DNA of 44,015 nt from Bacteroidales bacterium. GTDB lineage: Bacteria; Bacteroidota; Bacteroidia; Bacteroidales; VadinHA17. Made by a program: the position numbers and the translations under genes. The DNA lies in assembly GCA_017882345.1 (NCBI GenBank), contig JADGPT010000003.1, forward strand, positions 1 through 44,015, given 5' to 3'. This document shows positions 1 to 38,337 of the stretch, piece by piece. The notes beneath the pieces were generated by a model, which did no database searches, was not told the origin of the DNA, and saw nothing but the letters and a program-made list of their open reading frames with translations. Each line of letters starts with the position of its first letter. Within the stretch, counting starts at the first letter, position 1.

Positions 1-77
1 CCCCAAATGGAGGGCTTTATCATTTTGCCTTTTTACTTTTGCCTTTTTACTTTTGTCTTTTGTCTTTTATCTTTTAT
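1..77 (-). repeat. Composite intergenic repeat: NNAAAAG heptamer tract followed by GC-rich palindrome (truncated at window edge)
   Basis: Minus strand after the ugd stop reads ataaaag ataaaag acaaaag acaaaag taaaaag gcaaaag taaaaag gcaaaatg ataaagccctccatttgggg, the same layout as 6693-6801. Confidence 0.85.
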
Positions 78-1394
78 CTATCTTCTGCCTATTCCAAAAT
101 ATACAAATCCAAGTTTTTTTAGCTGAGCAGGGTCATAAATATTTCTGCCATCGAAAATCACCCTTCCTTTCATTAATTCAGCCATCCTGTTAAACTCAGG
201 AAGGTGAAATTCCGACCATTCAGTCATTAATGCAAGAGCATCGACATTTACCAGGGCTTCATAAGGATCAGAGTTGTACTCAATTTTGTTTCCAAGGAGT
301 TTTTTTGTTTCATTAATAGCCGCCGGGTCATAGGCTTTTACTCTGGCGCCAGCCTCAAGAAGACTTTCTATCAGAATGATTGAAGATGCTTCCCGGATAT
401 CATCTGTTTTAGGTTTGAATGATAACCCCCAAATACCAATTAACCTGTTCTTAAGATTATTATTAAAGAATTTATTCATCTTGTTGAAAATGACATTTTT
501 CTGGTACTCATTTGCTTTCTCGACAGCTTTGATTACATTTAGCTCATATCCATTGTCAGAAGCTGTTCTCAGAATCGCTTTTACATCCTTTGGAAAGCAT
601 GATCCACCGTACCCGGTACCCGGATAAATAAACTTGCTGCCTATCCTGGAATCACTGCCAATTCCTTTTCGGACATTGTTAATATCAGCGCCAAGTATAT
701 CGCATAAATTTGCTATCTCATTAATGAAACTGATACGTGTGGCAAGCATTGCATTTGCAGCATATTTTGTTATCTCCGCGGAAGCAATATCCATGAAAAG
801 TATCGGATGATTATTCAGTACAAATGGCATATACAGCCTGGTCATAATCTCCCTGGTTTTTTCATTATTTATTCCTATAACAATTCTCTCAGGTTTAAGA
901 AAATCGTCGATTGCCGCACCTTCTTTCAGAAACTCAGGGTTAGAAGCCATATCGAATGGAACGGATTCACCTCGTTTATCGAGTTCAGACTGGATGGCAG
1001 CACGAATCGTCTCAGATGTTCCCACAGGTACCGTACTTTTTGTTACTACAACGATGTGTTTTGTTATAACACGTCCAATATCCCTGGCAACATTAAGTAC
1101 ATGTTTCAGGTCAGCTGATCCATCTTCCCCGGGAGGTGTTCCTACAGCAATAAAAACTACCTCCGATCCTTCAATTCCTTCTTTTATATCTGTTGAAAAC
1201 GAAAGTCGCTTTTTTTCAATATTACTTCTGACCATACTGTCTAATCCGGGTTCATAAATCGGAATGGTCCCATTCTTAAGCTGTTGTATTTTATTACTAT
1301 CTACATCAACACAAGTTACATTGACCCCACTTTCAGCAAAACATGCGCCTGTCACCAAACCAACATAACCCGATCCTACTACAATAATTCTCAT
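78..1394 (-). CDS. ugd: UDP-glucose/GDP-mannose dehydrogenase family protein (UDP-glucose 6-dehydrogenase)
   Basis: N-terminal GSGYVG Rossmann motif, AVGTP, KSTVPVG, NPEFLKEG, catalytic GYGGSCFPKD, C-terminal DGRN. Confidence 0.95.
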   Translation of the reverse strand: MRIIVVGSGYVGLVTGACFAESGVNVTCVDVDSNKIQQLKNGTIPIYEPGLDSMVRSNIEKKRLSFSTDIKEGIEGSEVVFIAVGTPPGEDGSADLKHVLNVARDIGRVITKHIVVVTKSTVPVGTSETIRAAIQSELDKRGESVPFDMASNPEFLKEGAAIDDFLKPERIVIGINNEKTREIMTRLYMPFVLNNHPILFMDIASAEITKYAANAMLATRISFINEIANLCDILGADINNVRKGIGSDSRIGSKFIYPGTGYGGSCFPKDVKAILRTASDNGYELNVIKAVEKANEYQKNVIFNKMNKFFNNNLKNRLIGIWGLSFKPKTDDIREASSIILIESLLEAGARVKAYDPAAINETKKLLGNKIEYNSDPYEALVNVDALALMTEWSEFHLPEFNRMAELMKGRVIFDGRNIYDPAQLKKLGFVYFGIGRR

Positions 1395-3829: not shown

Positions 3830-4168
3830 ATGGATTTTAATATTGAGAGCCGGAATAACAGCACTGTAATTCAGATACTGTCGGAAAAGCTTGATACACA
3901 TATTGCTCCGGCACTTAAGTCGGAACTGGTGCTTGTCTCAGGTAAGGGTGAAAAGAATATCATCCTCGACCTTGAAAAATGTCAGTACTGTGACTCTTCC
4001 GGGCTGAGCGCTATATTAGTAGCCAACAGATTATGTAAAAATGCAGGGGGTACATTCGTTCTTTGCGGACTTAATGAAGCTGTTGAACGACTTATCACCA
4101 TTTCTCAGCTCGACACCGTTCTTACAATAACAGGATCGGTTGAAGATGCTGAAAAAATGATATCTTAA
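3830..4168 (+). CDS. STAS-domain protein (anti-sigma factor antagonist, SpoIIAA/RsbV-like)
   Basis: 112 aa with ILDL..CQYCDSSGLSAIL motif containing the phospho-acceptor Ser. Confidence 0.9.
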   Translation: MDFNIESRNNSTVIQILSEKLDTHIAPALKSELVLVSGKGEKNIILDLEKCQYCDSSGLSAILVANRLCKNAGGTFVLCGLNEAVERLITISQLDTVLTITGSVEDAEKMIS

Positions 4169-9667: not shown

Positions 9668-9783
9668 TATCTCCTCATAAATGATGTTGATCACAGCAAA
9701 TAGGTACCTTTATCAAAAATATACCCATTATTTAAAAAACCGGAAACTGTGATAGTTAAATTTTGGTAGCTTTATATTTTTAT

Positions 9784-9791
9784 TATATTTG
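9784..9791 (+). promoter_or_regulatory. -7 promoter element (TATATTTG) for the siaB/siaC-like pair
   Basis: TAnnTTTG with TTTG at 9762-9765 as a plausible -33 element. Confidence 0.6.
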
Positions 9792-9830
9792 TTATTGGAA
9801 AAACTAGATCTTATCTAAAATGAAGCTTAA

Positions 9831-10388
9831 ATGAGCTTTAATATAGAGAATTATTTTTCAGACTTGTCTGCCGGGAATACAATCCTTTATTATAAAGGCA
9901 ATGTTGATTCGGATGTCATAAATCATGTTCTTGACACTGTTGAGGATAAGATGGTTGCGGTTAATGAACAATCAAAGCTCAGGAAAAAAGTCTATAATGT
10001 CCTTGTTGAAAGTCTTCAGAATTTATACCATCATGTTGACAAAGTTCCCGATGACTTTGAGGATCAGACGGCTGAAAGATTTGGCCTGCTCGTAGTTAAA
10101 AAGGTCAACGACGGATATAGAATAATAACTGGAAATTTTGTACATGCCGAAAACATTGAAAGGCTGGAAGAGAAAATCAAGAGGATCAACAGGTCTAGCC
10201 ATGAAGAGATCAGGGAACTATATAAATTTATTCTGAACCACCAGCGTATTTCGGCTAAAGGAGGAGGTGGACTTGGCCTTGTTGACATAGCAAGGAAAAC
10301 AGGTAATAAACTTGAATACACTATTAAAGTATATAATAAAAATTATTCGTTCTTCTATCTTGATATTTTAGTGAACGAAGAAATGTAA
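9831..10388 (+). CDS. SiaB family (DUF6272) GHKL-type Ser/Thr protein kinase
   Basis: YKG N-terminal motif, N-box VESLQNLYHH, TGN, G-box KGGGGLGLVDIARK. Confidence 0.85.
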   Translation: MSFNIENYFSDLSAGNTILYYKGNVDSDVINHVLDTVEDKMVAVNEQSKLRKKVYNVLVESLQNLYHHVDKVPDDFEDQTAERFGLLVVKKVNDGYRIITGNFVHAENIERLEEKIKRINRSSHEEIRELYKFILNHQRISAKGGGGLGLVDIARKTGNKLEYTIKVYNKNYSFFYLDILVNEEM

Positions 10389-10410
10389 ACAAATTTTAAA
10401 TCTGATAAAT

Positions 10411-10791
10411 ATGGAACCGATCATTATCGAAGGAACCGCAAAAACTCCAACAGTTAAATTTGATTCTACAGAAGGTGTCTTTGAAATTAAAGGACGTTCA
10501 ATTCCAGAAAACTCAGTAGAATTCTATAAGCCTTTGGTAGACTGGCTTGATACATATAAGGAGTCACCTCTTACAAAAACTGTAGTAAATATTCGCCTTG
10601 AATATTTCAACACAAGCTCATCGAAGTGTATCCTCGATGTATTTAAGAAACTCGAAGCAATTCACAAAGCGAAAAATGAGGTTGAGGTGAACTGGTATTA
10701 CGAGGAAGACGATGAGGATATGCTAGAGGCAGGCGAGGATTATGAATCAATAATCCGGGTACCATTTAAAATGATTGAGATTATTGAATAA
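10411..10791 (+). CDS. SiaC family (DUF1987) regulatory phosphoprotein
   Basis: TP.V.FD, GRSIPEN, FY.P, YFNTSSSK (phospho-Thr motif), WYYEEDDEDM.E.GEDY. Confidence 0.9.
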   Translation: MEPIIIEGTAKTPTVKFDSTEGVFEIKGRSIPENSVEFYKPLVDWLDTYKESPLTKTVVNIRLEYFNTSSSKCILDVFKKLEAIHKAKNEVEVNWYYEEDDEDMLEAGEDYESIIRVPFKMIEIIE

Positions 10792-10888: not shown

Positions 10889-13800
10889 CTAATCGGAACT
10901 TTTCTTCTTTTTCCCAAATATATCTTCCCCGGAATCGAGTAGTTTTTTGAGCAACCTGAAATACAGTGCAAGGTAAAGAAAAAATGTCATACCCCAGAGG
11001 ACGATAACATTTACCATATAAGTATCAACTTTCATCCCAAAAATCTGCTTTTCCGGTGCATAAAAATGTGCCCTTATAAATTTATATTTGGAATCCATGA
11101 ATATTGGATCGAGTTTCTGAATCAATTCACCCTTATAAACAATGGTTTTTGTCGTTTCATTTTTGTCCTTAACGAACTCCTCGAGAGAATTATTAAAATA
11201 GTTATCCCTTAGTTTCAGGAATTTTTGCAGATTTTCTCCTGCCAACCTCGATTTCAAAGCTTCTTTACGGTTGCTGGCATCATTATAAAGATTGACATAA
11301 AGTTTCCTGATTGTTTCAACATAACTTATACCGGCAGTAGCTACTTCATAAGTAATCTTGTCGGGAGTGAGTTGATCACTATATACAAATCTGATCTCTG
11401 GTGTCAGTGCAAGTTGTTTCTTAATCTCATTTGAGACAAGAAGCAGGTTATCTCTGAATTCATTATCCTTTACTCCTTTGTCCAGGTCATTTATAATATT
11501 ATCAAGAGCGCCTTTTATCTCTACATTCCAATAGTCTTTCTTAAAGACTGCATTACTCATCTCCTTTTCATAAAGATAAAAAGGCCTTTCATAATTATTA
11601 TTAATAAACTGCTTAACGGCAAGGGCTTCATAACCCCACCTGGCAGTGATAAATTCACCATATACCGGAATAGAAACCGGAGAGGAAATATTCGGATTCA
11701 GCTTCTCAAATTTGACCATTACACCACTTAAAATAATCTGAGGAATTACAAGGAATGGAATTAATATATAAATAGTTACCACAGTCTTGAAGCTATCTGA
11801 TATTACCAGTCCAAGCATATTTGCACCTGCCCAGCAAGAAAACAGTACGAGCCAGTATTCAAACATCATCCCTCTTATTTCAGTAATCCCGTTACCAACC
11901 AGTACAAATGTGAATGCCTGAATTGCCGATATTGCAAACTGAACGAACACTTTCGACATCAGATAACTATTCCAGCTAAGATTAAGGAAAGCCTCCCTTT
12001 TTAAAATTTTTCTATCTTTTATTATCTCTTCAGCACTGACTGTAAGCCCCATGAAAATAGCTACAATCACCGACATGAAAATATAGATCGGAAGGTTGCT
12101 GTTGTTATATAAAGTGTAGTGTGGGGTTTTTATGCTTTCATCAAAATATCGTATAAGGAATGCAAGAAAAAATGCCAGAATGGGCGCCTCCAAAAGTGTA
12201 ATAATAAGGTATTGCGTGTCAGCAACTTTGGAGAGAACATCACGTTTAATAAAAACTATAAACTGTTTAAGTCTGTTTGGAGTCTTGAAATTTATTTCTG
12301 GTATTGAATTACCTGGTTCCCTTTTATCTTCCTTCTTTTCTTCTTTATAAAGGTTACTCCAGTCTGCCGGGGAAATCCTGCGTGTTTCGGTGGGTTGTCC
12401 ACTCTCGGTAAACACTTTGGTCTCAACAATATTGAATATCTGTTCAGGATTCACATTACCGCAGACGTAACACTCGCTATCGTTGTAATTTGCCTGTTCA
12501 ATTTTCCTTTTAAAATACTCTATTGAGTCAACCGGGTTGCCATTATATATAAGATATCCTCCGGTATCGAGGATAATAAGCTTATCAAACATCTTAAATA
12601 TCTCGGATGAGGGTTGATGGATTACAATAAACAGAAGTTTCCCTTTTCGTGCAAGTTCCTTTAATAAGTCAAGAATATTTTCAGAATCACGGGAAGATAA
12701 ACCGGATGTTGGTTCATCAAGAAACATTATTGCTGGTTCGCGGATAAGCTCAAGCGAGATGTTGAGTCTCTTTCGTTGTCCGCCACTTATTTTCTTATTA
12801 AGTGGACTGCCTACCTGAATATTCCTTATTTCATAGAGTCCGAGATTTTTCAGGACACTATCGACTCTGGTGATGATTTCTTCTTCTGTTAAATTATCAA
12901 AGCAAAGTTTAGCGTTGTAATAGAGATTTTCAAAAACAGTGAGCTCTTCAATGAGAAGGTCATCCTGTGAGACATATCCGATAAGCCCTTTGATCTTTTC
13001 CTTTTCCTTATGGATGCTTATTCCATTTATAAACACTTCTCCGTCATAAGGATTGCTTGTACCATTCAGTACACCGAGTAGAGTTGACTTTCCTGCCCCA
13101 CTGGCACCCATGATCCCTACCATTCTGCCCGATTCTTCCTTGAAGCTCATGTGATGAATTCCCACTGTTCCGCTTTTGAACCGGTATTCAAGATTATTAA
13201 CCTCATAAACTACTCTTGATGCTTTGAACTCCCCTTTCAGGAATTGCATTGTAACATCCCAGTAATATATAGGTGTTATTTTATATCCTTTGATAGATGA
13301 TCCCTGACTGAATGGATATACTTTTTCCTCCTGCAGGAGTTGGCCATTCATAGATAATTCACCTGAACCAATAAACCTTACAAAATATTTGTTAACAGAT
13401 GGCACATATAGTATCCAGATGTGACCTTTCAGTAAATCCTTATATGCATGTTTTGCCTCTTTGCGGTCAAAGTTCTTAATGCCATTAATTATTAACAGAT
13501 CAGAGGTTGCAGGAATATTTAAAAACGAATTCAGGACAAATCTTTCAATGAATTCATATTCCTCTGTGGTAATATTCAACCCTTCCGCGAGTGTACTTAT
13601 AAAACCAAGTTCAAGCTGACTTACTTCCTGTCCTCCTAATTTGCAAAATTCCAGTACCTGAATAACTACTACTATTCTCTGTTCCTGGTCGAGCTGACCC
13701 TGTTCGTTGATTTCATTGCTAAGTTTTCTGATCCTGATTGCGATGGCTCCTTCACGTCTCTCTTCACTGCTTTTTTCAAGCTTCTTTCTGGCTTCTTCAA

Positions 13801-13960
13801 ATTTTTCATCATATTTCGAGAGATATTTATTTACCAGTTCCTGATTCAGCAGTCGTTTGAGAAAAACTTCAACGAACCCTCTTCTCTCTTTAGCGTTGCT
13901 CTGAGGTTTGGCAATAATCGCAAACAACTGCATAAGAGTTTCCAGGATCTTCTCACTCAT
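10889..13960 (-). CDS. ABCG/White-like ABC half-transporter (N-terminal TerB-like helical domain, NBD, ABC-2 type membrane domain)
   Basis: Walker A GASGAGKST, Q-loop YVSQDD, signature ISGGQRKR, Walker B FLDEPTSGL, VIHQPS H-loop, then multiple TM helices. The N-terminal domain call is by resemblance only. Confidence 0.85.
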   Translation of the reverse strand: MSEKILETLMQLFAIIAKPQSNAKERRGFVEVFLKRLLNQELVNKYLSKYDEKFEEARKKLEKSSEERREGAIAIRIRKLSNEINEQGQLDQEQRIVVVIQVLEFCKLGGQEVSQLELGFISTLAEGLNITTEEYEFIERFVLNSFLNIPATSDLLIINGIKNFDRKEAKHAYKDLLKGHIWILYVPSVNKYFVRFIGSGELSMNGQLLQEEKVYPFSQGSSIKGYKITPIYYWDVTMQFLKGEFKASRVVYEVNNLEYRFKSGTVGIHHMSFKEESGRMVGIMGASGAGKSTLLGVLNGTSNPYDGEVFINGISIHKEKEKIKGLIGYVSQDDLLIEELTVFENLYYNAKLCFDNLTEEEIITRVDSVLKNLGLYEIRNIQVGSPLNKKISGGQRKRLNISLELIREPAIMFLDEPTSGLSSRDSENILDLLKELARKGKLLFIVIHQPSSEIFKMFDKLIILDTGGYLIYNGNPVDSIEYFKRKIEQANYNDSECYVCGNVNPEQIFNIVETKVFTESGQPTETRRISPADWSNLYKEEKKEDKREPGNSIPEINFKTPNRLKQFIVFIKRDVLSKVADTQYLIITLLEAPILAFFLAFLIRYFDESIKTPHYTLYNNSNLPIYIFMSVIVAIFMGLTVSAEEIIKDRKILKREAFLNLSWNSYLMSKVFVQFAISAIQAFTFVLVGNGITEIRGMMFEYWLVLFSCWAGANMLGLVISDSFKTVVTIYILIPFLVIPQIILSGVMVKFEKLNPNISSPVSIPVYGEFITARWGYEALAVKQFINNNYERPFYLYEKEMSNAVFKKDYWNVEIKGALDNIINDLDKGVKDNEFRDNLLLVSNEIKKQLALTPEIRFVYSDQLTPDKITYEVATAGISYVETIRKLYVNLYNDASNRKEALKSRLAGENLQKFLKLRDNYFNNSLEEFVKDKNETTKTIVYKGELIQKLDPIFMDSKYKFIRAHFYAPEKQIFGMKVDTYMVNVIVLWGMTFFLYLALYFRLLKKLLDSGEDIFGKKKKSSD

Positions 13961-17468: not shown

Positions 17469-17801
17469 TCAGAATGACCTTAAACATGTATCAATATCAG
17501 AATAGATCTGAAAAACAGTGTGAAGGTGAAGAGTTTCAAACAACTCAGTAATTCTTGGCTCCGGATTAGCAAACTTGAGTACTCCATAATTGTTCCTTGC
17601 AGCTTTCATAACTGAAAGAAAACAACCAAATCCTGAACTGTCAATATATTCCACCCCTTTAAGATCGATTATAACTTTTGAATTAGAATTATCAAGTACT
17701 TTAAGAATATCTTCTCTGATTTCATCAATGTTCAGAGCATTGATCTTATTGACAGAGAAGGATATAATGTCTATATTATCCTTTTTTTCAATATTTATCA
17801 T
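17469..17801 (-). CDS. STAS-domain anti-sigma factor antagonist
   Basis: IIDLKGVEYIDSSGFG motif, 110 aa; ATGA overlap with the upstream Hpt gene. Confidence 0.9.
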   Translation of the reverse strand: MINIEKKDNIDIISFSVNKINALNIDEIREDILKVLDNSNSKVIIDLKGVEYIDSSGFGCFLSVMKAARNNYGVLKFANPEPRITELFETLHLHTVFQIYSDIDTCLRSF

Positions 17802-18163
17802 TTATTACTGTTTAACCTGTTACTGATCAACTCATCAAGCTCCCTGATAGCTTCTTTTGTTTCACTTATAAATCTCTCTAAATATGATTCATATAATTGA
17901 GTTTCTTTTCCCGCCCTGGCCTGGAGTTCAAGTGTTTTTAACATTTCGGCCAACGAAGTCATCCCCATAATGGCAACTGATGACTTTGCTTTGTGGGCGA
18001 GCAATCCCAGAGAAGTATACTTCTTTGCTGCCAGGAGGGATTTCATCTCATTATATATTTCAACAGATTGTTCTTTGAATATCACAACGATTTCATTGAT
18101 GATTCCGGGATCTCCTCCTGAAACAGAATCAAGATATTCCATGTTTATGAATTTGTAATCCAT
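17798..18163 (-). CDS. Stand-alone histidine phosphotransfer (Hpt) domain protein
   Basis: YL..VSGGD...I.E....F, conserved LAHKAKSS His motif, all-helical 121 aa. Confidence 0.88.
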   Translation of the reverse strand: MDYKFINMEYLDSVSGGDPGIINEIVVIFKEQSVEIYNEMKSLLAAKKYTSLGLLAHKAKSSVAIMGMTSLAEMLKTLELQARAGKETQLYESYLERFISETKEAIRELDELISNRLNSNK

Positions 18164-27130: not shown

Positions 27131-28054
27131 ATGAATAAAAAATATGGCATTTGTTCAAAAATTCTGGTGGTAGTTTTAATGTTCACCAGTCTGCTTATGG
27201 GCTGCAAGTCCGGAGGTACAAAGACAACTAAGGAAGATGTAAAAGTTAGTGTTCCAAAAGAAAATGCAACTGTAGTTGAAGATATTCAGCAGGCAGAAAA
27301 AATATTTAATGCACTTCCGTCACCCCTTGAGTCAGCTATGCTCATAAAATCGGCTGGTGCAAGGTTCGATGAGGCTCTGCTCAATCCTATAGGTAATGTA
27401 AATAGTTATGTGACGAATAAAAGCATGGCTCTTAATCTGGGAATTTATACCTGCGATTTAAGTTTTGCAAGTTTATATGAACAGACTCAGCTTATTATTG
27501 ATTATATGAACGCTGCCAAGAAAATGGCTGATGGACTGGGCATTCTTAAGGCAATTGAACAGTCACAAATTGACAAATTAGAGGAAAATATCAATAACAG
27601 CGAAGTTATTATGGAGATTGTAAGTGAGACTTTTATGAACTCTAATTCATATCTTTCAGATAATGGTCAGCCCGCAATTGCAGCAATGGTACTAGTAGGC
27701 GGATGGTTCGAGGGATTATATATTTCTACTCAACTTGTTGATTTGAAGGAATTTAATGGCAATAAGCTTGTCGGCAGGATTATTGATCAGAAACTTTCGA
27801 TCGACATACTTTTAAATTTACTTGAAAGCAGTAAGGGGAATCCTGCAGTTGATGACCTAATTGTTCAGGTTAAAAAACTGAAAGTCGTTTTTGATAAAAT
27901 ATCAATCACAACTTCAAAAATAAGACCAGAGTTTGACAAAGTATCAAATATGACAGTTCTAAAGTCAGAGGTTAAGACTGATATGACACCTGAAGTATTC
28001 AAGGAACTCTCAATAACTGTTTCGGAGATAAGAAAGACATTCGTAAATAACTAG
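27131..28054 (+). CDS. Hypothetical all-helical lipoprotein
   Basis: Lipobox LLMG-C at about residue 25, low-complexity tether, then PSPLE, ALNLGIY..DL, GGWFEGLY motifs. Confidence 0.8.
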   Translation: MNKKYGICSKILVVVLMFTSLLMGCKSGGTKTTKEDVKVSVPKENATVVEDIQQAEKIFNALPSPLESAMLIKSAGARFDEALLNPIGNVNSYVTNKSMALNLGIYTCDLSFASLYEQTQLIIDYMNAAKKMADGLGILKAIEQSQIDKLEENINNSEVIMEIVSETFMNSNSYLSDNGQPAIAAMVLVGGWFEGLYISTQLVDLKEFNGNKLVGRIIDQKLSIDILLNLLESSKGNPAVDDLIVQVKKLKVVFDKISITTSKIRPEFDKVSNMTVLKSEVKTDMTPEVFKELSITVSEIRKTFVNN

Positions 28055-28058
28055 CCCC

Positions 28059-28502
28059 ATGAGAATACTTAGAATAATTCCAATACTGGCATTACTTGTA
28101 GTTGCTACAACTTTTAATGTAAATGCTCAGTGCAAAGCATTCGCTAAAAAGGTTTGCATCCCTGAGTTGGGAGCGTATACCCATGATGGAAACTATCATG
28201 CTGCAATACTTGTTGAAGGCGAGGAAGCCGAGCTATATAAAACATTTTATTCCGACATGGATTACAGAGTCTCAATCTGTGGAGAAGACAAACTTCCGGA
28301 TGTGGAATTCAGGGTACTGGATGCAAATAAAAATGTACTCTATTCAAATAAAGATGCGAACTTTGCTAAAACATGGGATTTCAAACTACAATCCAGTCAA
28401 CAGCTAAAGCTCATTGTTAAAGTTAACTCATTTAATAAACCAGGTGAAACACCGGCAAGTGGTTGTGTTGCAATAATGTTTGGATTCAAAATAAAAAAAT
28501 AA
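28059..28502 (+). CDS. Hypothetical secreted beta-sandwich protein with four Cys
   Basis: Signal peptide ending VNA/Q, C..FAKK.C, YRVSICG, VLDAN.NVLYSN, GCVAIMFG; starts 4 nt after the lipoprotein stop. Confidence 0.8.
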   Translation: MRILRIIPILALLVVATTFNVNAQCKAFAKKVCIPELGAYTHDGNYHAAILVEGEEAELYKTFYSDMDYRVSICGEDKLPDVEFRVLDANKNVLYSNKDANFAKTWDFKLQSSQQLKLIVKVNSFNKPGETPASGCVAIMFGFKIKK

Positions 28503-33332: not shown

Positions 33333-33839
33333 ATGAAAATAGGTCTTCTCTCGGACACACATGGATGGATTCACCCGCGGCTTTTTGATCATTTTGCAGA
33401 TTGTGATGAAATATGGCATGCAGGAGACATTGGAAACGTTGAAACAGCAGATAGACTTTCCAGCTTCAAACCTTTGAAAGCTGTTTACGGTAACATTGAT
33501 GATGCAGTTATCAGAAGTATTTATAAAGAGAATTTAATTTTCATGGCTGAAGAAATCAGGGTTTGGCTTACCCATATTGGTGGAACACCCGGCCATTATG
33601 ACCGCAGAATATTACCTGCTCTGAATGAAAATCCTCCTGATCTTTTTATTTGCGGACATTCACATATCGCAAAGGTGATGAATGATAAAAAGTCAGGATT
33701 TTTATATATGAATCCTGGGGCTGCTGGTTATAACGGTTTTCATAAGTATATGACAGCAATCAGGTTTTATATTGATGGGAAAAACATTCACGATCTTGAA
33801 CTGATAGAGCTTGGCGAGCGGGGCAGGGTCATTTTATAA
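33333..33839 (+). CDS. YfcE/MJ0936-like metallophosphoesterase
   Basis: LSDTH, HAGD, GNID, GHSH, NPG motifs. Start moved to ATG 33333; the upstream in-frame extension is translated repeat DNA. Confidence 0.9.
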   Translation: MKIGLLSDTHGWIHPRLFDHFADCDEIWHAGDIGNVETADRLSSFKPLKAVYGNIDDAVIRSIYKENLIFMAEEIRVWLTHIGGTPGHYDRRILPALNENPPDLFICGHSHIAKVMNDKKSGFLYMNPGAAGYNGFHKYMTAIRFYIDGKNIHDLELIELGERGRVIL

Positions 33840-36800
33840 GACCATTGAGATCCCTGGAATTATCTTCCGCTTTGTTATCCGACATTCTCTGAAGGAATTT
33901 GCCAAGCCGGTCTTCAACTGCAATCATATATGTATAAGGTACTTTTATTGTTGATTCAGGGTGTTTTCTATCATTAAGTTTCGTTTTGGCAATAATTGTA
34001 TTATAGCTGTTGTTCCCCGACTGTGTCATCATTACGCCTCTGAAATATGAGAAATAATACCAGGTAGATTGATCTGCTTTCAGATATATATCAATCAAAT
34101 CACCCGATCTTCTTCTTTGAATCTCAATATAGCCGTCAACATAAACATTTACAGGTTGTGGTCCTATGAATCCGATACCTATTTTACCTGTCGATCGGAA
34201 GGATGCTGTAGATTCATTCCAGAAGAGTTTTACATCGTTGAGAAGAAGTTCGTATTTAAATTCCTTCGGCAGGTTCCTTGTTGCGCCGAACAGATCCATG
34301 TCCTCCTTTAATTGCGATGCAATATTCACTCCCAGGAGATCCTTCATAGCCTTGTTATTCAGATCTGAATTCAGATTCACAGGTTTAAGCGACGGCATCA
34401 TTCTTATTTCATCTGCCATAACTTTAAGGGCTTCAGAGGAGAAATGAAAATCAAGGGCAAGGATCGCATTAATGTTAACTTTACCCGAATCAAGGACATG
34501 AACTACATTGCCAGCACTGGTAAGTTTAACAAGGTCAAGCTTTGCGCCAAAATCAATATGTCCCTCTCCCGACAATATGCAGTAGTTTTTATCGAAGCCA
34601 ATCATATTCCCCGGAAGAGTCTGATCGATAAGCTTTTCACGCGAGGCGATTAAGTATCTGCCTTTTGCTTTTTCATAGTAGAGCCATCCATTTGAGTTTA
34701 CCAGAGCGACATCGGACCATGATTTTTGGGCAGAAAGGAAAGTTGGATATATATGAATAGAATCAATATTGATGAAAGATCCGGAAACTACAAGATTATC
34801 ATTCATGTCTCTGGGTTTCTCAACGACGGGGATCATAACATTTTTTGGATCGATCTGGTATTTGAATTTGAGTGAATAACTCTCGATTGTTCTGCAATTA
34901 TGCAAGATACCTGCAGCTCCTGTAAAGGTAAGATTATCGGCCCGGGCTGAGAGGGCAACATCACCGGAAAATGAGAAAGCAGGACTTAGCATGAATTTTT
35001 GAGATACAGGTATATAGCCTTTCGCGTAGGTTGTTGCCGTATCGACCTCCAATTCCGGAAAATTAATTTTCTGAATCTCTTTATTTTCATCCAAATAATC
35101 GTAAATAGCGCTACCGGTATATCTTTTTGTTGATTCAATATCAATCTTTGCAGAATGCAATATGTGTCTGTGGTTCAAAGCAATGACGGCATTCTGCATC
35201 TGTTGAATTTTAGCTCTCCGGTTAATTATAATCTTCCCATTTTCTGGTTGAATGAGTGCATCAGCAATATGAATATAATTTATGTTTTCCGCTTCAATAT
35301 ATTCCTGATCCAGGTGATAACTTCCTTTCCATGATGAGAAAGCGACTGTATCAGAAAGATTGTTTGTGGCAAAAAAAGTCGGCTTATCAAGTCTGGCGAA
35401 GTCAAGCTTTATGAGTTTATCAGTTGTTAAAAGAGGAATATTCGACTTTCCCTTCTGCTCCATATTGAGAATACGGTTTTCCATATTGTAAGTAAAATCT
35501 GTCATTGTACAGATATATTGGATCTCTGGAAATTTTACAACTGATGAATCAGTATTTAACCTGAAGTGTGCCATCTTAAGATCAAAATTGATCTCTGTAT
35601 TGGCATTTTCCGCAATAAATGAATATCCGTTTGTGGAAAGCGATTTGAGAGTATAATCAGCAGTATCGGCTTTAATTGCATTCGATGTAAAACTGAAAAG
35701 ATTGGAAGTGACTCTGGAATCGGTTAAATTAATTATTCCAGTACCATTCAGTCTTGCCGGGGAAAGTGATAATTTGCCATCAAGGGTTGTTCCATTTCCG
35801 AACATATTAAAAGTCTTTCCTTCTGCGGTGGTTGCTATCCATTCATCTTTTTGAGTCAGCCATCTGACTGCGACATCCTGGCTGTTAAGTATGGGAAATA
35901 TTCCTGATCCATCTTTTTCAATATTGAAAGTCGAGGCATTGGTGATCATGGAATCAGGGAAGAATTTAAATTCATCCGATACTGTTGTGGATGTCAAATG
36001 TTTTATAGTCCCGCTTCCTGTCAGTCCCTTGTTACTCATGCTAAGAGCATTATATAATATACCCCTGTTCCCATACACTTCAATCCCTTCCGGAGGGATG
36101 GTCATATTAAATCCTAATGAGTTGTTTTCCTGTATAACCAGATACTGACGCATTGGTTTAAGAATATTTCCTCCCACAAATTCTCCCGATAGGTTCAAAT
36201 CCTTGTTTGTGTAATGATCTATATTTTCATAGGTGAAAGGATCAACCTTAAAATAAAAATCCTTTTGTTTGTAAACACCCTCAAGTCCGGCTATCTTATC
36301 ATAGAAAATATATGAGTTTGTAGTTGTATTTATGATCGGATACTGCTTCAGGCTTTTTAATCCGGATTTGTTATCCGGTTTATCGATATAAAGTTCCGCT
36401 GAGCCCAGTTGAATAAGATTCTCTACATTTTGAATAATAGGATTACCCAGTTTATCCCTCTTATCGGTCTCAACAGAAATTTTTATGGAATCGATTTTCT
36501 GAAGCCTGATCTTAAATGTATCATAGCTGAATAAGAAATTATGCCCGAAAACTGTAAATAGACCTGCTTCAACGATACCGTCAAAATTAATGTTTCTGTT
36601 TTTACCGATTATCAATTGTTTATTATAAGGATAAATTGCAACCTTCTGGGAATCGCTAAGTAAGACGCTGGATACACCATTTATTGTCAGACCGAATTTT
36701 TTCAGATCAAGGATAGCGTTATCAGCAGGTGCTCTTGTTTCGCTGACTATATTTATGATATCATAGTCTTTTTTTCTGGCATATGAATTGAGGAAATCCT

Positions 36801-38337
36801 TTGTTTTTTTCTTTATTGTGACCTCATTATTAATTCTATCATAGAAAATAAAGCCCTTATTGGCCATATCGATGCATAAACCGGTAACAGCCTCTACAGG
36901 CCTATTAAGCCATCTGGCAAATTCAGCCACGGAAAATGTCTCGGAGTAGAACCATTCTGCAAATTTAGTCAGACGGTTTAGAGGATGGTATTCATCGAGT
37001 CCCATCAACTGTAAAAAATAGGCTGAGTTGAAGAACGAGGTGGATTCAAATTCTGCATGTCCAAGAGAGGCTCCTCTTGCATGTGAAAGAACAATTTTAA
37101 AATCGTTCATATTCCACGACAAATATTCAAAATACATGTCGAGGTTGTGAAATGAATCGAAATAGGGACTCCCGGAGATCGGATTACTTGTGCGGAAGAG
37201 ATTTACCTGTCTGGTAGAAACAAAGTATGAAAACCCCAGGTTTGAATGGTATATTGAATCCTTGTCAAGATACAGCGACATGGTAACTTCCTGGCTGCTT
37301 AATCCGGTTTTGGAGAAGAGAAATTCTTTTGAACGTATTCTGAGATAAAGAGTATCATTTCTGAAAAGAGTAATTTTCGCCGGGTCAGCATTTTTACCGG
37401 TTCCCTTCACATTAGCCCCTTCAAATGTGAGTCCGCCTTCATAATTAACACCCTTGTATATGTTTTTAATCTTAAATTCTTTTGCATAAGTTTCAAAACG
37501 AGGATAGTTAGCTTTTTCCTTGTTGGTAAAGCTTATTGCCTGGTCGGCAAGTAATCCTGTAACCGGTTCTTTAAAATAGGTAGCATGCGTAAGTTTCGCA
37601 GAATCAACGGTGAAACTGCTTTTTGTCATATTAATTGTATAGCCGGTGAGTTCAGCAAAAACTTCATTACGTGGATATCCGGCTTTTTCCCAGGTAACGA
37701 CACCTTTTGTACCTATGAATTGCTGGGTCTCAGGATAGTAACTTCCCGTGACATTGTATAGTTCTGTACTGTCTTTTTGAGAATAGCATGTTAGTGTAGC
37801 GTTGGAAACAGTAACATAAATAGCAGTGTCGTGCAAAAATTTAAGAGTATTATTCTTTACCTTCCATTTAACACTTCCAGATTCGAAGAGCACATTTTCT
37901 TTGACCATCAGGCTGCTATTTTTAAAATACCTGTCGATATTGTCATTTGTAAATGTCTGACTGAATGCTATTTCACTTAAGCCTTTAAACCAATTCGTGA
38001 AAAAAGAGACGTCACGTTTATACTCGATGAAATAATTCAGGGTCAACAGAAAATCATTAAAGTGGGGTACAGGTCTCATTTGTCTCGATGATAACTGAAC
38101 CGAAACATTAATTATTTTATTCATAATATCAGAGCTGAAAGCAGAGCTGTCCCATCTGGAAAGGAATGTATTAAGGTTTGCAAGCTGATCGGCATTAAGG
38201 TTCGGTCCCATAAAAGATGTGAGTTCGGTTCTGAACTTTGCAGGATCTCCGGAAAATGCAGATTTGGCCTGGGAATGCAATATCCCGGTAGATACTAAAA
38301 AGATTAACTGAATCAGAATTGCCAGCTTTTTTGACAT
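33829..38337 (-). CDS. Large (1502 aa) exported hypothetical beta-rich protein
   Basis: Uninterrupted 4.5-kb ORF, signal peptide MSKKLAILIQLIFLVSTGILHS/Q, alternating-hydrophobic beta pattern; no catalytic motif recognised. Confidence 0.85.
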   Translation of the reverse strand: MSKKLAILIQLIFLVSTGILHSQAKSAFSGDPAKFRTELTSFMGPNLNADQLANLNTFLSRWDSSAFSSDIMNKIINVSVQLSSRQMRPVPHFNDFLLTLNYFIEYKRDVSFFTNWFKGLSEIAFSQTFTNDNIDRYFKNSSLMVKENVLFESGSVKWKVKNNTLKFLHDTAIYVTVSNATLTCYSQKDSTELYNVTGSYYPETQQFIGTKGVVTWEKAGYPRNEVFAELTGYTINMTKSSFTVDSAKLTHATYFKEPVTGLLADQAISFTNKEKANYPRFETYAKEFKIKNIYKGVNYEGGLTFEGANVKGTGKNADPAKITLFRNDTLYLRIRSKEFLFSKTGLSSQEVTMSLYLDKDSIYHSNLGFSYFVSTRQVNLFRTSNPISGSPYFDSFHNLDMYFEYLSWNMNDFKIVLSHARGASLGHAEFESTSFFNSAYFLQLMGLDEYHPLNRLTKFAEWFYSETFSVAEFARWLNRPVEAVTGLCIDMANKGFIFYDRINNEVTIKKKTKDFLNSYARKKDYDIINIVSETRAPADNAILDLKKFGLTINGVSSVLLSDSQKVAIYPYNKQLIIGKNRNINFDGIVEAGLFTVFGHNFLFSYDTFKIRLQKIDSIKISVETDKRDKLGNPIIQNVENLIQLGSAELYIDKPDNKSGLKSLKQYPIINTTTNSYIFYDKIAGLEGVYKQKDFYFKVDPFTYENIDHYTNKDLNLSGEFVGGNILKPMRQYLVIQENNSLGFNMTIPPEGIEVYGNRGILYNALSMSNKGLTGSGTIKHLTSTTVSDEFKFFPDSMITNASTFNIEKDGSGIFPILNSQDVAVRWLTQKDEWIATTAEGKTFNMFGNGTTLDGKLSLSPARLNGTGIINLTDSRVTSNLFSFTSNAIKADTADYTLKSLSTNGYSFIAENANTEINFDLKMAHFRLNTDSSVVKFPEIQYICTMTDFTYNMENRILNMEQKGKSNIPLLTTDKLIKLDFARLDKPTFFATNNLSDTVAFSSWKGSYHLDQEYIEAENINYIHIADALIQPENGKIIINRRAKIQQMQNAVIALNHRHILHSAKIDIESTKRYTGSAIYDYLDENKEIQKINFPELEVDTATTYAKGYIPVSQKFMLSPAFSFSGDVALSARADNLTFTGAAGILHNCRTIESYSLKFKYQIDPKNVMIPVVEKPRDMNDNLVVSGSFINIDSIHIYPTFLSAQKSWSDVALVNSNGWLYYEKAKGRYLIASREKLIDQTLPGNMIGFDKNYCILSGEGHIDFGAKLDLVKLTSAGNVVHVLDSGKVNINAILALDFHFSSEALKVMADEIRMMPSLKPVNLNSDLNNKAMKDLLGVNIASQLKEDMDLFGATRNLPKEFKYELLLNDVKLFWNESTASFRSTGKIGIGFIGPQPVNVYVDGYIEIQRRRSGDLIDIYLKADQSTWYYFSYFRGVMMTQSGNNSYNTIIAKTKLNDRKHPESTIKVPYTYMIAVEDRLGKFLQRMSDNKAEDNSRDLNGLIK

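Follow-up and report, generated by a model that had tools for sequence, protein, structure and literature searches.

The SiaABCD system of Pseudomonas aeruginosa is the closest described relative of the locus reported here, and its SiaB/SiaC phospho-switch, which controls a target (PMC7278518), is the model on which we draw by analogy. E61 of the P. aeruginosa SiaB is predicted to be catalytic in PMC7647112. According to PMC8457831, SiaC binds the diguanylate cyclase SiaD through its alpha2/alpha3/T68 face, and SiaC proteins (DUF1987) are widespread, while modulation of adjacent proteins by them is merely suggested there. Our search found no paper on Sia proteins or on a TerB/FHA ABC transporter in Bacteroidota, with most of the subscription literature lying outside that search. 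To our knowledge, a diguanylate cyclase is the only characterised output of SiaC.

A first-pass annotation of the 44,015 nucleotides analysed here (the window) had described a siaB-siaC pair as an orphan module with a likely output other than c-di-GMP signalling. We propose that the pair is a Sia-type partner switch whose likely output is the neighbouring ABCG-type transporter, with SiaC docking on a helix of the transporter head, and we consider this reading fairly probable.

The siaB-siaC locus

The pair had been described as an intact kinase and its SiaC partner with their own promoter motif and terminator, and it comprises the following features.

9762..9791, + strand: promoter-like TTTG-N18-TATATTTG before siaB, a match to a Bacteroidota housekeeping-type motif
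9831..10388, + strand: siaB, SiaB-family Ser/Thr kinase (DUF6272) of 185 aa, assigned by profile, with motifs E60xxQN and G-box intact
10411..10791, + strand: siaC, SiaC-family phosphoprotein (DUF1987) of 126 aa with T68 as its putative phospho-acceptor, PF09345 at 158 bits
10833..10874, no strand: 19-bp hairpin, likely a terminator in both directions, for siaC and for the convergent ABC gene (-29.9 kcal/mol, z -10)

In profile searches, SiaB scored 146 bits against NF038262 (cut-off 85) and 127 bits against DUF6272. It carries GGGGLG at residues 144-149, and E60 of its intact E-x-x-Q-N motif aligned to the glutamate of SiaB in 6kko; ExxQN was present in 106 of 106 full-length SiaB homologues. 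The T68 codon of siaC is at 10612-10614 within the motif YFNTSSSK. T68 aligned in register with T68 of P. aeruginosa SiaC, and it was unchanged in 76 aligned SiaC homologues. Among the best 80 of 580 related loci, SiaC identity was 80-98% and the nearest named relatives were Bacteroidales MAGs. Both proteins scored under the equivalog cut-offs (68 vs 225 for SiaB, 101 vs 150 for SiaC).

The promoter motif was named after what we take to be the Bacteroidota housekeeping-promoter consensus. TTTG-N18-TATATTTG by itself is not significant, with 3 matches in the window vs 1.85 expected. Of 76 related loci, which are kin and not independent, 75 carry TAnnTTTG no more than 120 nt before siaB, vs 101 of 1600 random windows. 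The hairpin was not called by a simple terminator scanner. Metatranscriptome contigs from 4 runs of 2 studies overlap siaB, siaC, and the ABC gene in part, and their depth of 2-4 is too thin to judge transcription or operon structure. The earlier description holds, and siaB-siaC is a real, intact pair with its own promoter motif and terminator.

The window also encodes further partner-switch components without a local kinase, two stand-alone STAS anti-anti-sigma proteins and an Hpt protein (3830-4168, + strand; 17469-17801 and 17798-18163, - strand), as well as a 1502-aa ORF with a start resembling a signal peptide (33829-38337).

Phosphatases and c-di-GMP enzymes in the genome and class

The window had been said to lack GGDEF and PP2C genes, and genome-wide searches indeed placed none on its contig. 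The description of the pair as an orphan without SiaA fails at the level of the genome, which has 10 SpoIIE/PP2C matches. Eight PP2C domains, most of them on sensor proteins, scored 160-196 bits against the PP2C portion of the SiaA model, and none of the eight reached the full-length SiaA cut-off of 700. The sole PDB match of one SiaA-type PP2C was 6k4e, which we take to be, most likely, the SiaA PP2C structure. A PP2C gene is often 10 bp to 1.4 kb from siaB in other families; no SiaA PP2C is next to siaBC in the window or in the 80 closest loci, and a quick PP2C tree placed no phosphatase of this genome within the clade that flanks siaB elsewhere. Since the eight SiaA-type PP2C domains are encoded outside the locus, the phosphatase arm exists and is dispersed.

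Profile searches for GGDEF, EAL, and PilZ found none in this 87%-complete genome, while the positive controls gave matches in 8, 6, and 5 of 14 reference genomes, respectively. A SiaD-type stalk was also not found by profile search in the same genome. Of the two partners reported as missing, the SiaA-type PP2C was recovered genome-wide and the SiaD-like cyclase was not. In a sample of the phylum, SiaC was present in 18 of 300 other genomes, and GGDEF accompanied it in 0 of 7 genomes of the same class and in 11 of 11 of other classes. Among 351 Bacteroidia, 190 encode SiaC, six have GGDEF above the cut-off, and one has both. Since nearly all of these 190 genomes are without c-di-GMP synthesis, SiaC must have another job there, and the suggestion of an output other than c-di-GMP stands.

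The genome carries 6 SiaC genes, and two genes account for its 3 SiaB domains. A 371-aa tandem double SiaB has an altered second G-box and no adjoining siaC (C244:3149-4264). Five solitary SiaC paralogues (contigs C13, C86, C125, C104, C72) are beside unrelated genes; position 68 is Ser in two of them, and the C-terminus is longer and diverged in two. A cluster judged by eye to be iron-hydrogenase-like includes a gene for an atypical SpoIIE protein whose phosphatase domain is N-terminal (C221:7808-15604).

The ABC transporter next to siaC and its companions

The analysis of gene neighbourhoods and co-occurrence yielded a specific candidate output, the adjoining ABC transporter. The following features belong to it or travel with it.

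10889..13960, - strand: ABCG-type half transporter of 1023 aa, the proposed output, with a TerB-like and FHA-like head, an ATPase, and an ABC2 membrane domain
13241..13516, - strand: FHA-like beta domain within the head, spanning roughly residues 149-240, assigned by fold matches to FHA domains
27131..28054, + strand: lipoprotein of 307 aa, no known family (no Pfam; unnamed Atlas clusters)
28059..28502, + strand: protein of 147 aa, no known family (no Pfam), its N-terminus like a signal peptide, travelling with the lipoprotein and the ABC gene

The transporter matched PF00005 at residues 269-419 and then PF01061 at 566-756. Its ATPase motifs are intact, with GASGAGKS at 285 (Walker A), SGGQ at 392 (signature), IMFLDE at 411 (Walker B), and IHQ at 447 (H-loop). 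An ATPase with all four motifs followed by an ABC2 membrane domain is the layout of an ABC-2/ABCG half transporter.

The 245-residue head is predicted to consist of a helical bundle followed by a beta domain (pLDDT 83.8, from a 7-row alignment; the single-sequence fold was poor past residue 143). The bundle, head residues 1-145, is TerB-like: 50 of 76 heads matched PF05099 (best E 1.7e-11), whereas the window's copy gave no match, and 14-22% of the members of Atlas clusters matching the head were TerB. The top TerB-like folds were 2h5n (Z 8.8, rmsd 3.6, 117 aligned) and 2ou3 (Z 7.3, rmsd 4.7, 130 aligned), which are modest scores for helical bundles. The beta domain matched many FHA structures with Z 5.5-7.0 (3gqs: Z 6.9, rmsd 2.2, 73 aligned), and the Foldseek FHA matches were weak in score and consistent (E 0.007-0.1). 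Pfam FHA was detected in 0 of 76 heads. We judged the domain by the NGT loop, which we take to represent the canonical phosphothreonine-binding residue set, and in one weak alignment to the MEK1 FHA domain (E 0.3) this loop was not kept. The FHA-like domain is thus probably not a phosphothreonine reader.

The lipoprotein gene is 13 kb away from the ABC gene in the window, and it is right upstream of it in most other families. The lipoprotein and the 147-aa secreted protein are likely to be periplasmic partners of the transporter. Two ABC paralogues with the same head are encoded elsewhere in the genome, one with a clade-2 docking segment (C247:5348-8400, score 1.16) and one in which the segment is lost (C218:5988-9101, score -0.17), and there are three further lipoprotein paralogues.

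Co-occurrence and synteny

Among the 351 Bacteroidia, 180 genomes have both SiaC and the ABC head, 10 have SiaC only, 9 the head only, and 152 neither (phi 0.89). This tally takes in the unpublished genomes G376 and G440, without which the joint count is 178 of 349, and the kin among the co-occurring genomes are not independent. In an 80-genome subset, the ABC head reached a phi of 0.82 with SiaC and the lipoprotein 0.86, compared with 0.59 for a STAS gene of the window used as control. This single control indicates that shared lineage accounts for part of the signal. Two fragmented genomes (G318, G341) lack the head and keep the lipoprotein.

Of the 80 closest loci, 79 contain siaB and 76 have the ABC gene beside siaC; where 4 kb of downstream sequence was available, the ABC gene was found in 63 of 64 closest loci. 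The neighbourhoods of 20 regions showed a recurring ABC gene, usually together with homologues of the lipoprotein and the 147-aa protein. Convergent, co-oriented, and spaced gene orders, including a duplicated clade, were found in 34 genomes of 17 other families, whose loci were picked for adjacency and so show its spread and not its rate.

Two loci of a second cassette clade (L056, L063) have on one strand genes for CheR/CheB-like proteins (by eye), a sensor, PP2C, SiaB, SiaC, the ABC protein, the lipoprotein, and the small protein. Tandem siaB-siaC-siaB-siaC arrays were seen at L199, L200, and L204, in two families in which the docking helix is lost from the ABC heads.

The predicted SiaC-head complex

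Head residues 1-245 and SiaC were predicted to form a complex with a score of 0.85 (runs 0.85, 0.83, and 0.86), and the best of 3 controls scored 0.00. For calibration, 116 of 157 solved complexes attained the score mark, as did 2 of 215 mismatched pairs; these rates are rough here, where our own alignments were used. The input was a 76-row alignment for each protein, taken from adjacent genes, and 43 of the 76 rows were close kin. At least 95% of the contacts agreed among the runs, and the pLDDT of SiaC was at least 91. The predicted interface has two parts on the head.

13715..13762, - strand: docking helix, head residues 67-82, the predicted SiaC site, lost in SiaC-less genomes
13583..13615, - strand: second predicted contact patch, head residues 116-126, the best window outside the docking helix

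The interface residues are 60, 64, 67-76, 78-79, 82, and 116-126 of the head and 31, 64-75, and 102-114 of SiaC. T68 is predicted to contact head residues 70, 73, and 74, and D110 to contact R76. The face of SiaC that contacts the head in the prediction is the one known to bind SiaD. The family consensus of the docking helix, K-R-T-S-x-x-S-V-K/R-I/V-L-K-I-C, has diverged to RREGAIAIRIRKLS in the window protein, in which A74 and G71 replace the usual Ser.

The predicted complex supports binding of SiaC to the head. Since SiaC-SiaD (7E6G) and SiaC-SiaB (6KKO) are solved structures, the model may have learned from them how SiaC grasps helices, which may raise the score. With five SiaC and two ABC paralogues in the genome, the pairing in the cell is assumed from adjacency.

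Conservation of the predicted docking helix follows SiaC

We scored 10 positions of segment 68-80, which was set by the model, in heads outside the complex alignment. The segment was kept (about 1.0 bit per position or more) in 26 of 30 heads with SiaC in the genome and in 0 of 9 full heads of SiaC-less genomes, the best of which scored 0.22. The 30 SiaC-bearing heads had been chosen by family before their sequences were viewed; the 9 SiaC-less genomes represent 6 families, and the counts are raw, without phylogenetic correction. Other conserved positions of the head were largely kept (median 2.26 in SiaC-less vs 2.67 in SiaC-bearing genomes). In a sliding comparison of heads with and without SiaC, window 68-80 had the top gap (2.86), and the best of 110 windows outside the docking segment was 116-126 (1.01), the second patch of the model.

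Two rows were dropped, G411, in which a contig end cuts the head, and G481, a 96-aa contig-end fragment. The G481 fragment is an exception, as it comes from a SiaC-less genome and retains the motif. Contrasts within families agreed in f70 and f107, agreed partly in f15, and were mixed in f63. The segment was also kept in three genomes with a large distance between siaC and the ABC gene (G340, G420, G383), so gene order is not the explanation. The comparison shows, at the level of sequence, that the docking helix is selectively conserved where SiaC is present.

The SiaD-type stalk as a probable alternative target of SiaC

At other loci, the gene after siaC encodes a stalk with the motif K-I-x-R-I-S/G-D-x-x-Q-x-K-L, either alone or fused to GGDEF, to a histidine kinase, or to a hydrophobic C-terminal segment. 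In 7e6g, the two motifs by which SiaD binds SiaC were both matched by the stalk profile (E 4.8e-4), and an unrelated helical protein scored alike. The stalk module was seen at L047, L048-L050, L051, L052, L055, L060, L061, L064, L065, L201, and L204. The SiaD-type stalk is a mobile module, and SiaC may also gate histidine kinases. Homology between the head and the SiaD stalk was not detected by hhalign (probability 0.4%). A by-eye guess that head residues 76-90 are the SiaD stalk motif was dropped on this result and because the predicted complex lies in a more upstream register. SiaD motif patterns built on the residue list in PMC8457831 gave only chance-looking matches in the ORFs of the genome.

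The stalk was found in 5 of 80 genomes, of which two lack the ABC gene, two have a degenerate head, and one has both; in G320, the stalk and a partly kept helix occur together. Among 26 chosen genomes, seven have the stalk: two without the ABC gene, two with helix-less heads, and three from a family with weak-scoring heads, in which the helix was lost in both heads examined. The two stalk genomes with helix-less heads are two of the four exceptions among the 30 SiaC-bearing heads. No stalk was found in the 16 chosen genomes with an intact helix (0/16). There are exceptions, as G310 and G503 have SiaC and a helix-less head and no stalk, and G339, G375, G429, and G437 have SiaC and neither head nor stalk. 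Head and stalk behave as alternative targets of SiaC, and since the stalk tends to appear where the helix is lost, the head seems to sit in the output slot.

Proposed mechanism and alternative explanations

In the mechanism that we propose, SiaB would phosphorylate SiaC on T68 and hold it in that state, and a signal at a dispersed SiaA-type PP2C sensor would lead to removal of the phosphate. Unphosphorylated SiaC would then dock on helix 67-82 of the TerB-like head, with T68 buried against the small residue at position 74. Phosphorylation of T68 would block docking, as we infer from the P. aeruginosa model (PMC7278518) and from the position of T68 inside the predicted interface. Docking may activate the pump and not inhibit it, with the balance tipped only slightly towards activation. 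More broadly, we lean a little towards the view that in about half of the Bacteroidia families SiaC is a clip-on subunit gating a TerB-headed ABCG exporter with its own lipoprotein, and that DUF1987 activators have been rewired among diguanylate cyclases, histidine kinases, membrane-anchored stalk proteins, and a transporter with an unrelated docking helix.

Docking alone leaves undecided which partner regulates which. SiaC might dock on the head while the transporter and lipoprotein act on the input side or as a sink, sensing the envelope and sequestering SiaC, and the output might be elsewhere, for example through SiaB as an anti-sigma factor. The complex and the helix conservation are just as compatible with this reading, a sigma factor is the classical end point of partner switches, and a similarity of SiaC to anti-sigma antagonists is described in PMC7647112. 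However, it is the stalk, a known output module, that tends to replace the lost helix, and eight SiaA-type PP2C domains already supply inputs, so we consider a sensor role unlikely.

It is less probable still that the adjacency is a gene order inherited in one set of environmental Bacteroidia while SiaC controls another protein. Such a history predicts neither the selective loss of the helix without SiaC nor its retention when the genes are unlinked, and it does not predict a complex scoring 0.85 on the same helix. Yet here the two genes are convergent and transcribed separately, with the hairpin between them, the control STAS gene co-occurs too (phi 0.59), and several SiaC-bearing genomes are without the ABC gene.

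Phosphorylated SiaC could instead bind the FHA-like domain of the head, given the FHA-like fold in the head and the phosphothreonine of SiaC. Rv1747 is described in PMC3138270 as a phosphorylation-regulated FHA-ABC transporter, and a phosphate could not enter the complex prediction. We regard this binding as quite improbable, since the 76 heads have no Pfam FHA, the NGT loop was not kept in the weak alignment (E 0.3), the predicted interface names no FHA residue, and the SiaC-linked conservation falls on the helix. Least credible of all is an ordinary SiaABCD system with its diguanylate cyclase in the unassembled 13% of the genome: completeness is 87% and true siaC-GGDEF pairs occur in other classes of the phylum (L047, L051, L052), but GGDEF is above the cut-off in 1 of 190 SiaC-bearing Bacteroidia, and EAL and PilZ were not found in the genome.

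Now that a candidate target can be named, with a predicted docking helix and predicted contacts, the question of whether SiaC gates the transporter is reduced to two small soluble proteins. If true, it would be a new way of gating an ABC transporter. It would also give the first functional lead for the TerB-like domains of transporters and for the unnamed lipoprotein family, and suggest what the numerous PP2C sensor proteins in environmental members of the class may do.

Comparison with known systems

The locus resembles SiaABCD of P. aeruginosa, as described in PMC7647112, PMC8457831, and PMC7278518 and by the structures 6KKO, 7E6G, and 6K4F, in its SiaB kinase, T68 of SiaC, and SiaA-type PP2C. 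The alpha2/alpha3/T68 face of SiaC is predicted here to lie on a target helix, as in that system. Unlike in SiaABCD, no SiaD or c-di-GMP enzyme was found in the genome, and SiaA is not operonic, the phosphatases being dispersed. At several positions that contact SiaD, the alignment to P. aeruginosa SiaC showed the differences D29R, Y31I, D79K, R103D, and D114I. The target in SiaABCD is a coiled-coil stalk, whereas the predicted target here is a TerB-like bundle on a transporter.

The transporter resembles Rv1747 of Mycobacterium tuberculosis, which is paired with the kinase PknF (PMC3138270). Both are ABC-2/ABCG half transporters with an N-terminal FHA fold and a tie to Ser/Thr phosphorylation. 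Unlike Rv1747, the transporter here has one FHA-like domain, with the phosphothreonine loop seemingly missing, plus a TerB-like domain, and it is predicted to be controlled by a separate docking protein, not by a Hanks-type kinase that phosphorylates the transporter.

The switch is also similar to HptB-HsbR-HsbA/HsbD and BgrUVW/BgrR, in which, according to PMC7647112 and PMC8457831, a kinase, a PP2C, and a small phosphoprotein regulate a target by binding. In the same papers, those pathways use STAS proteins and end in diguanylate cyclases, whereas the pathway here would use a DUF1987 protein and lead to a transporter.
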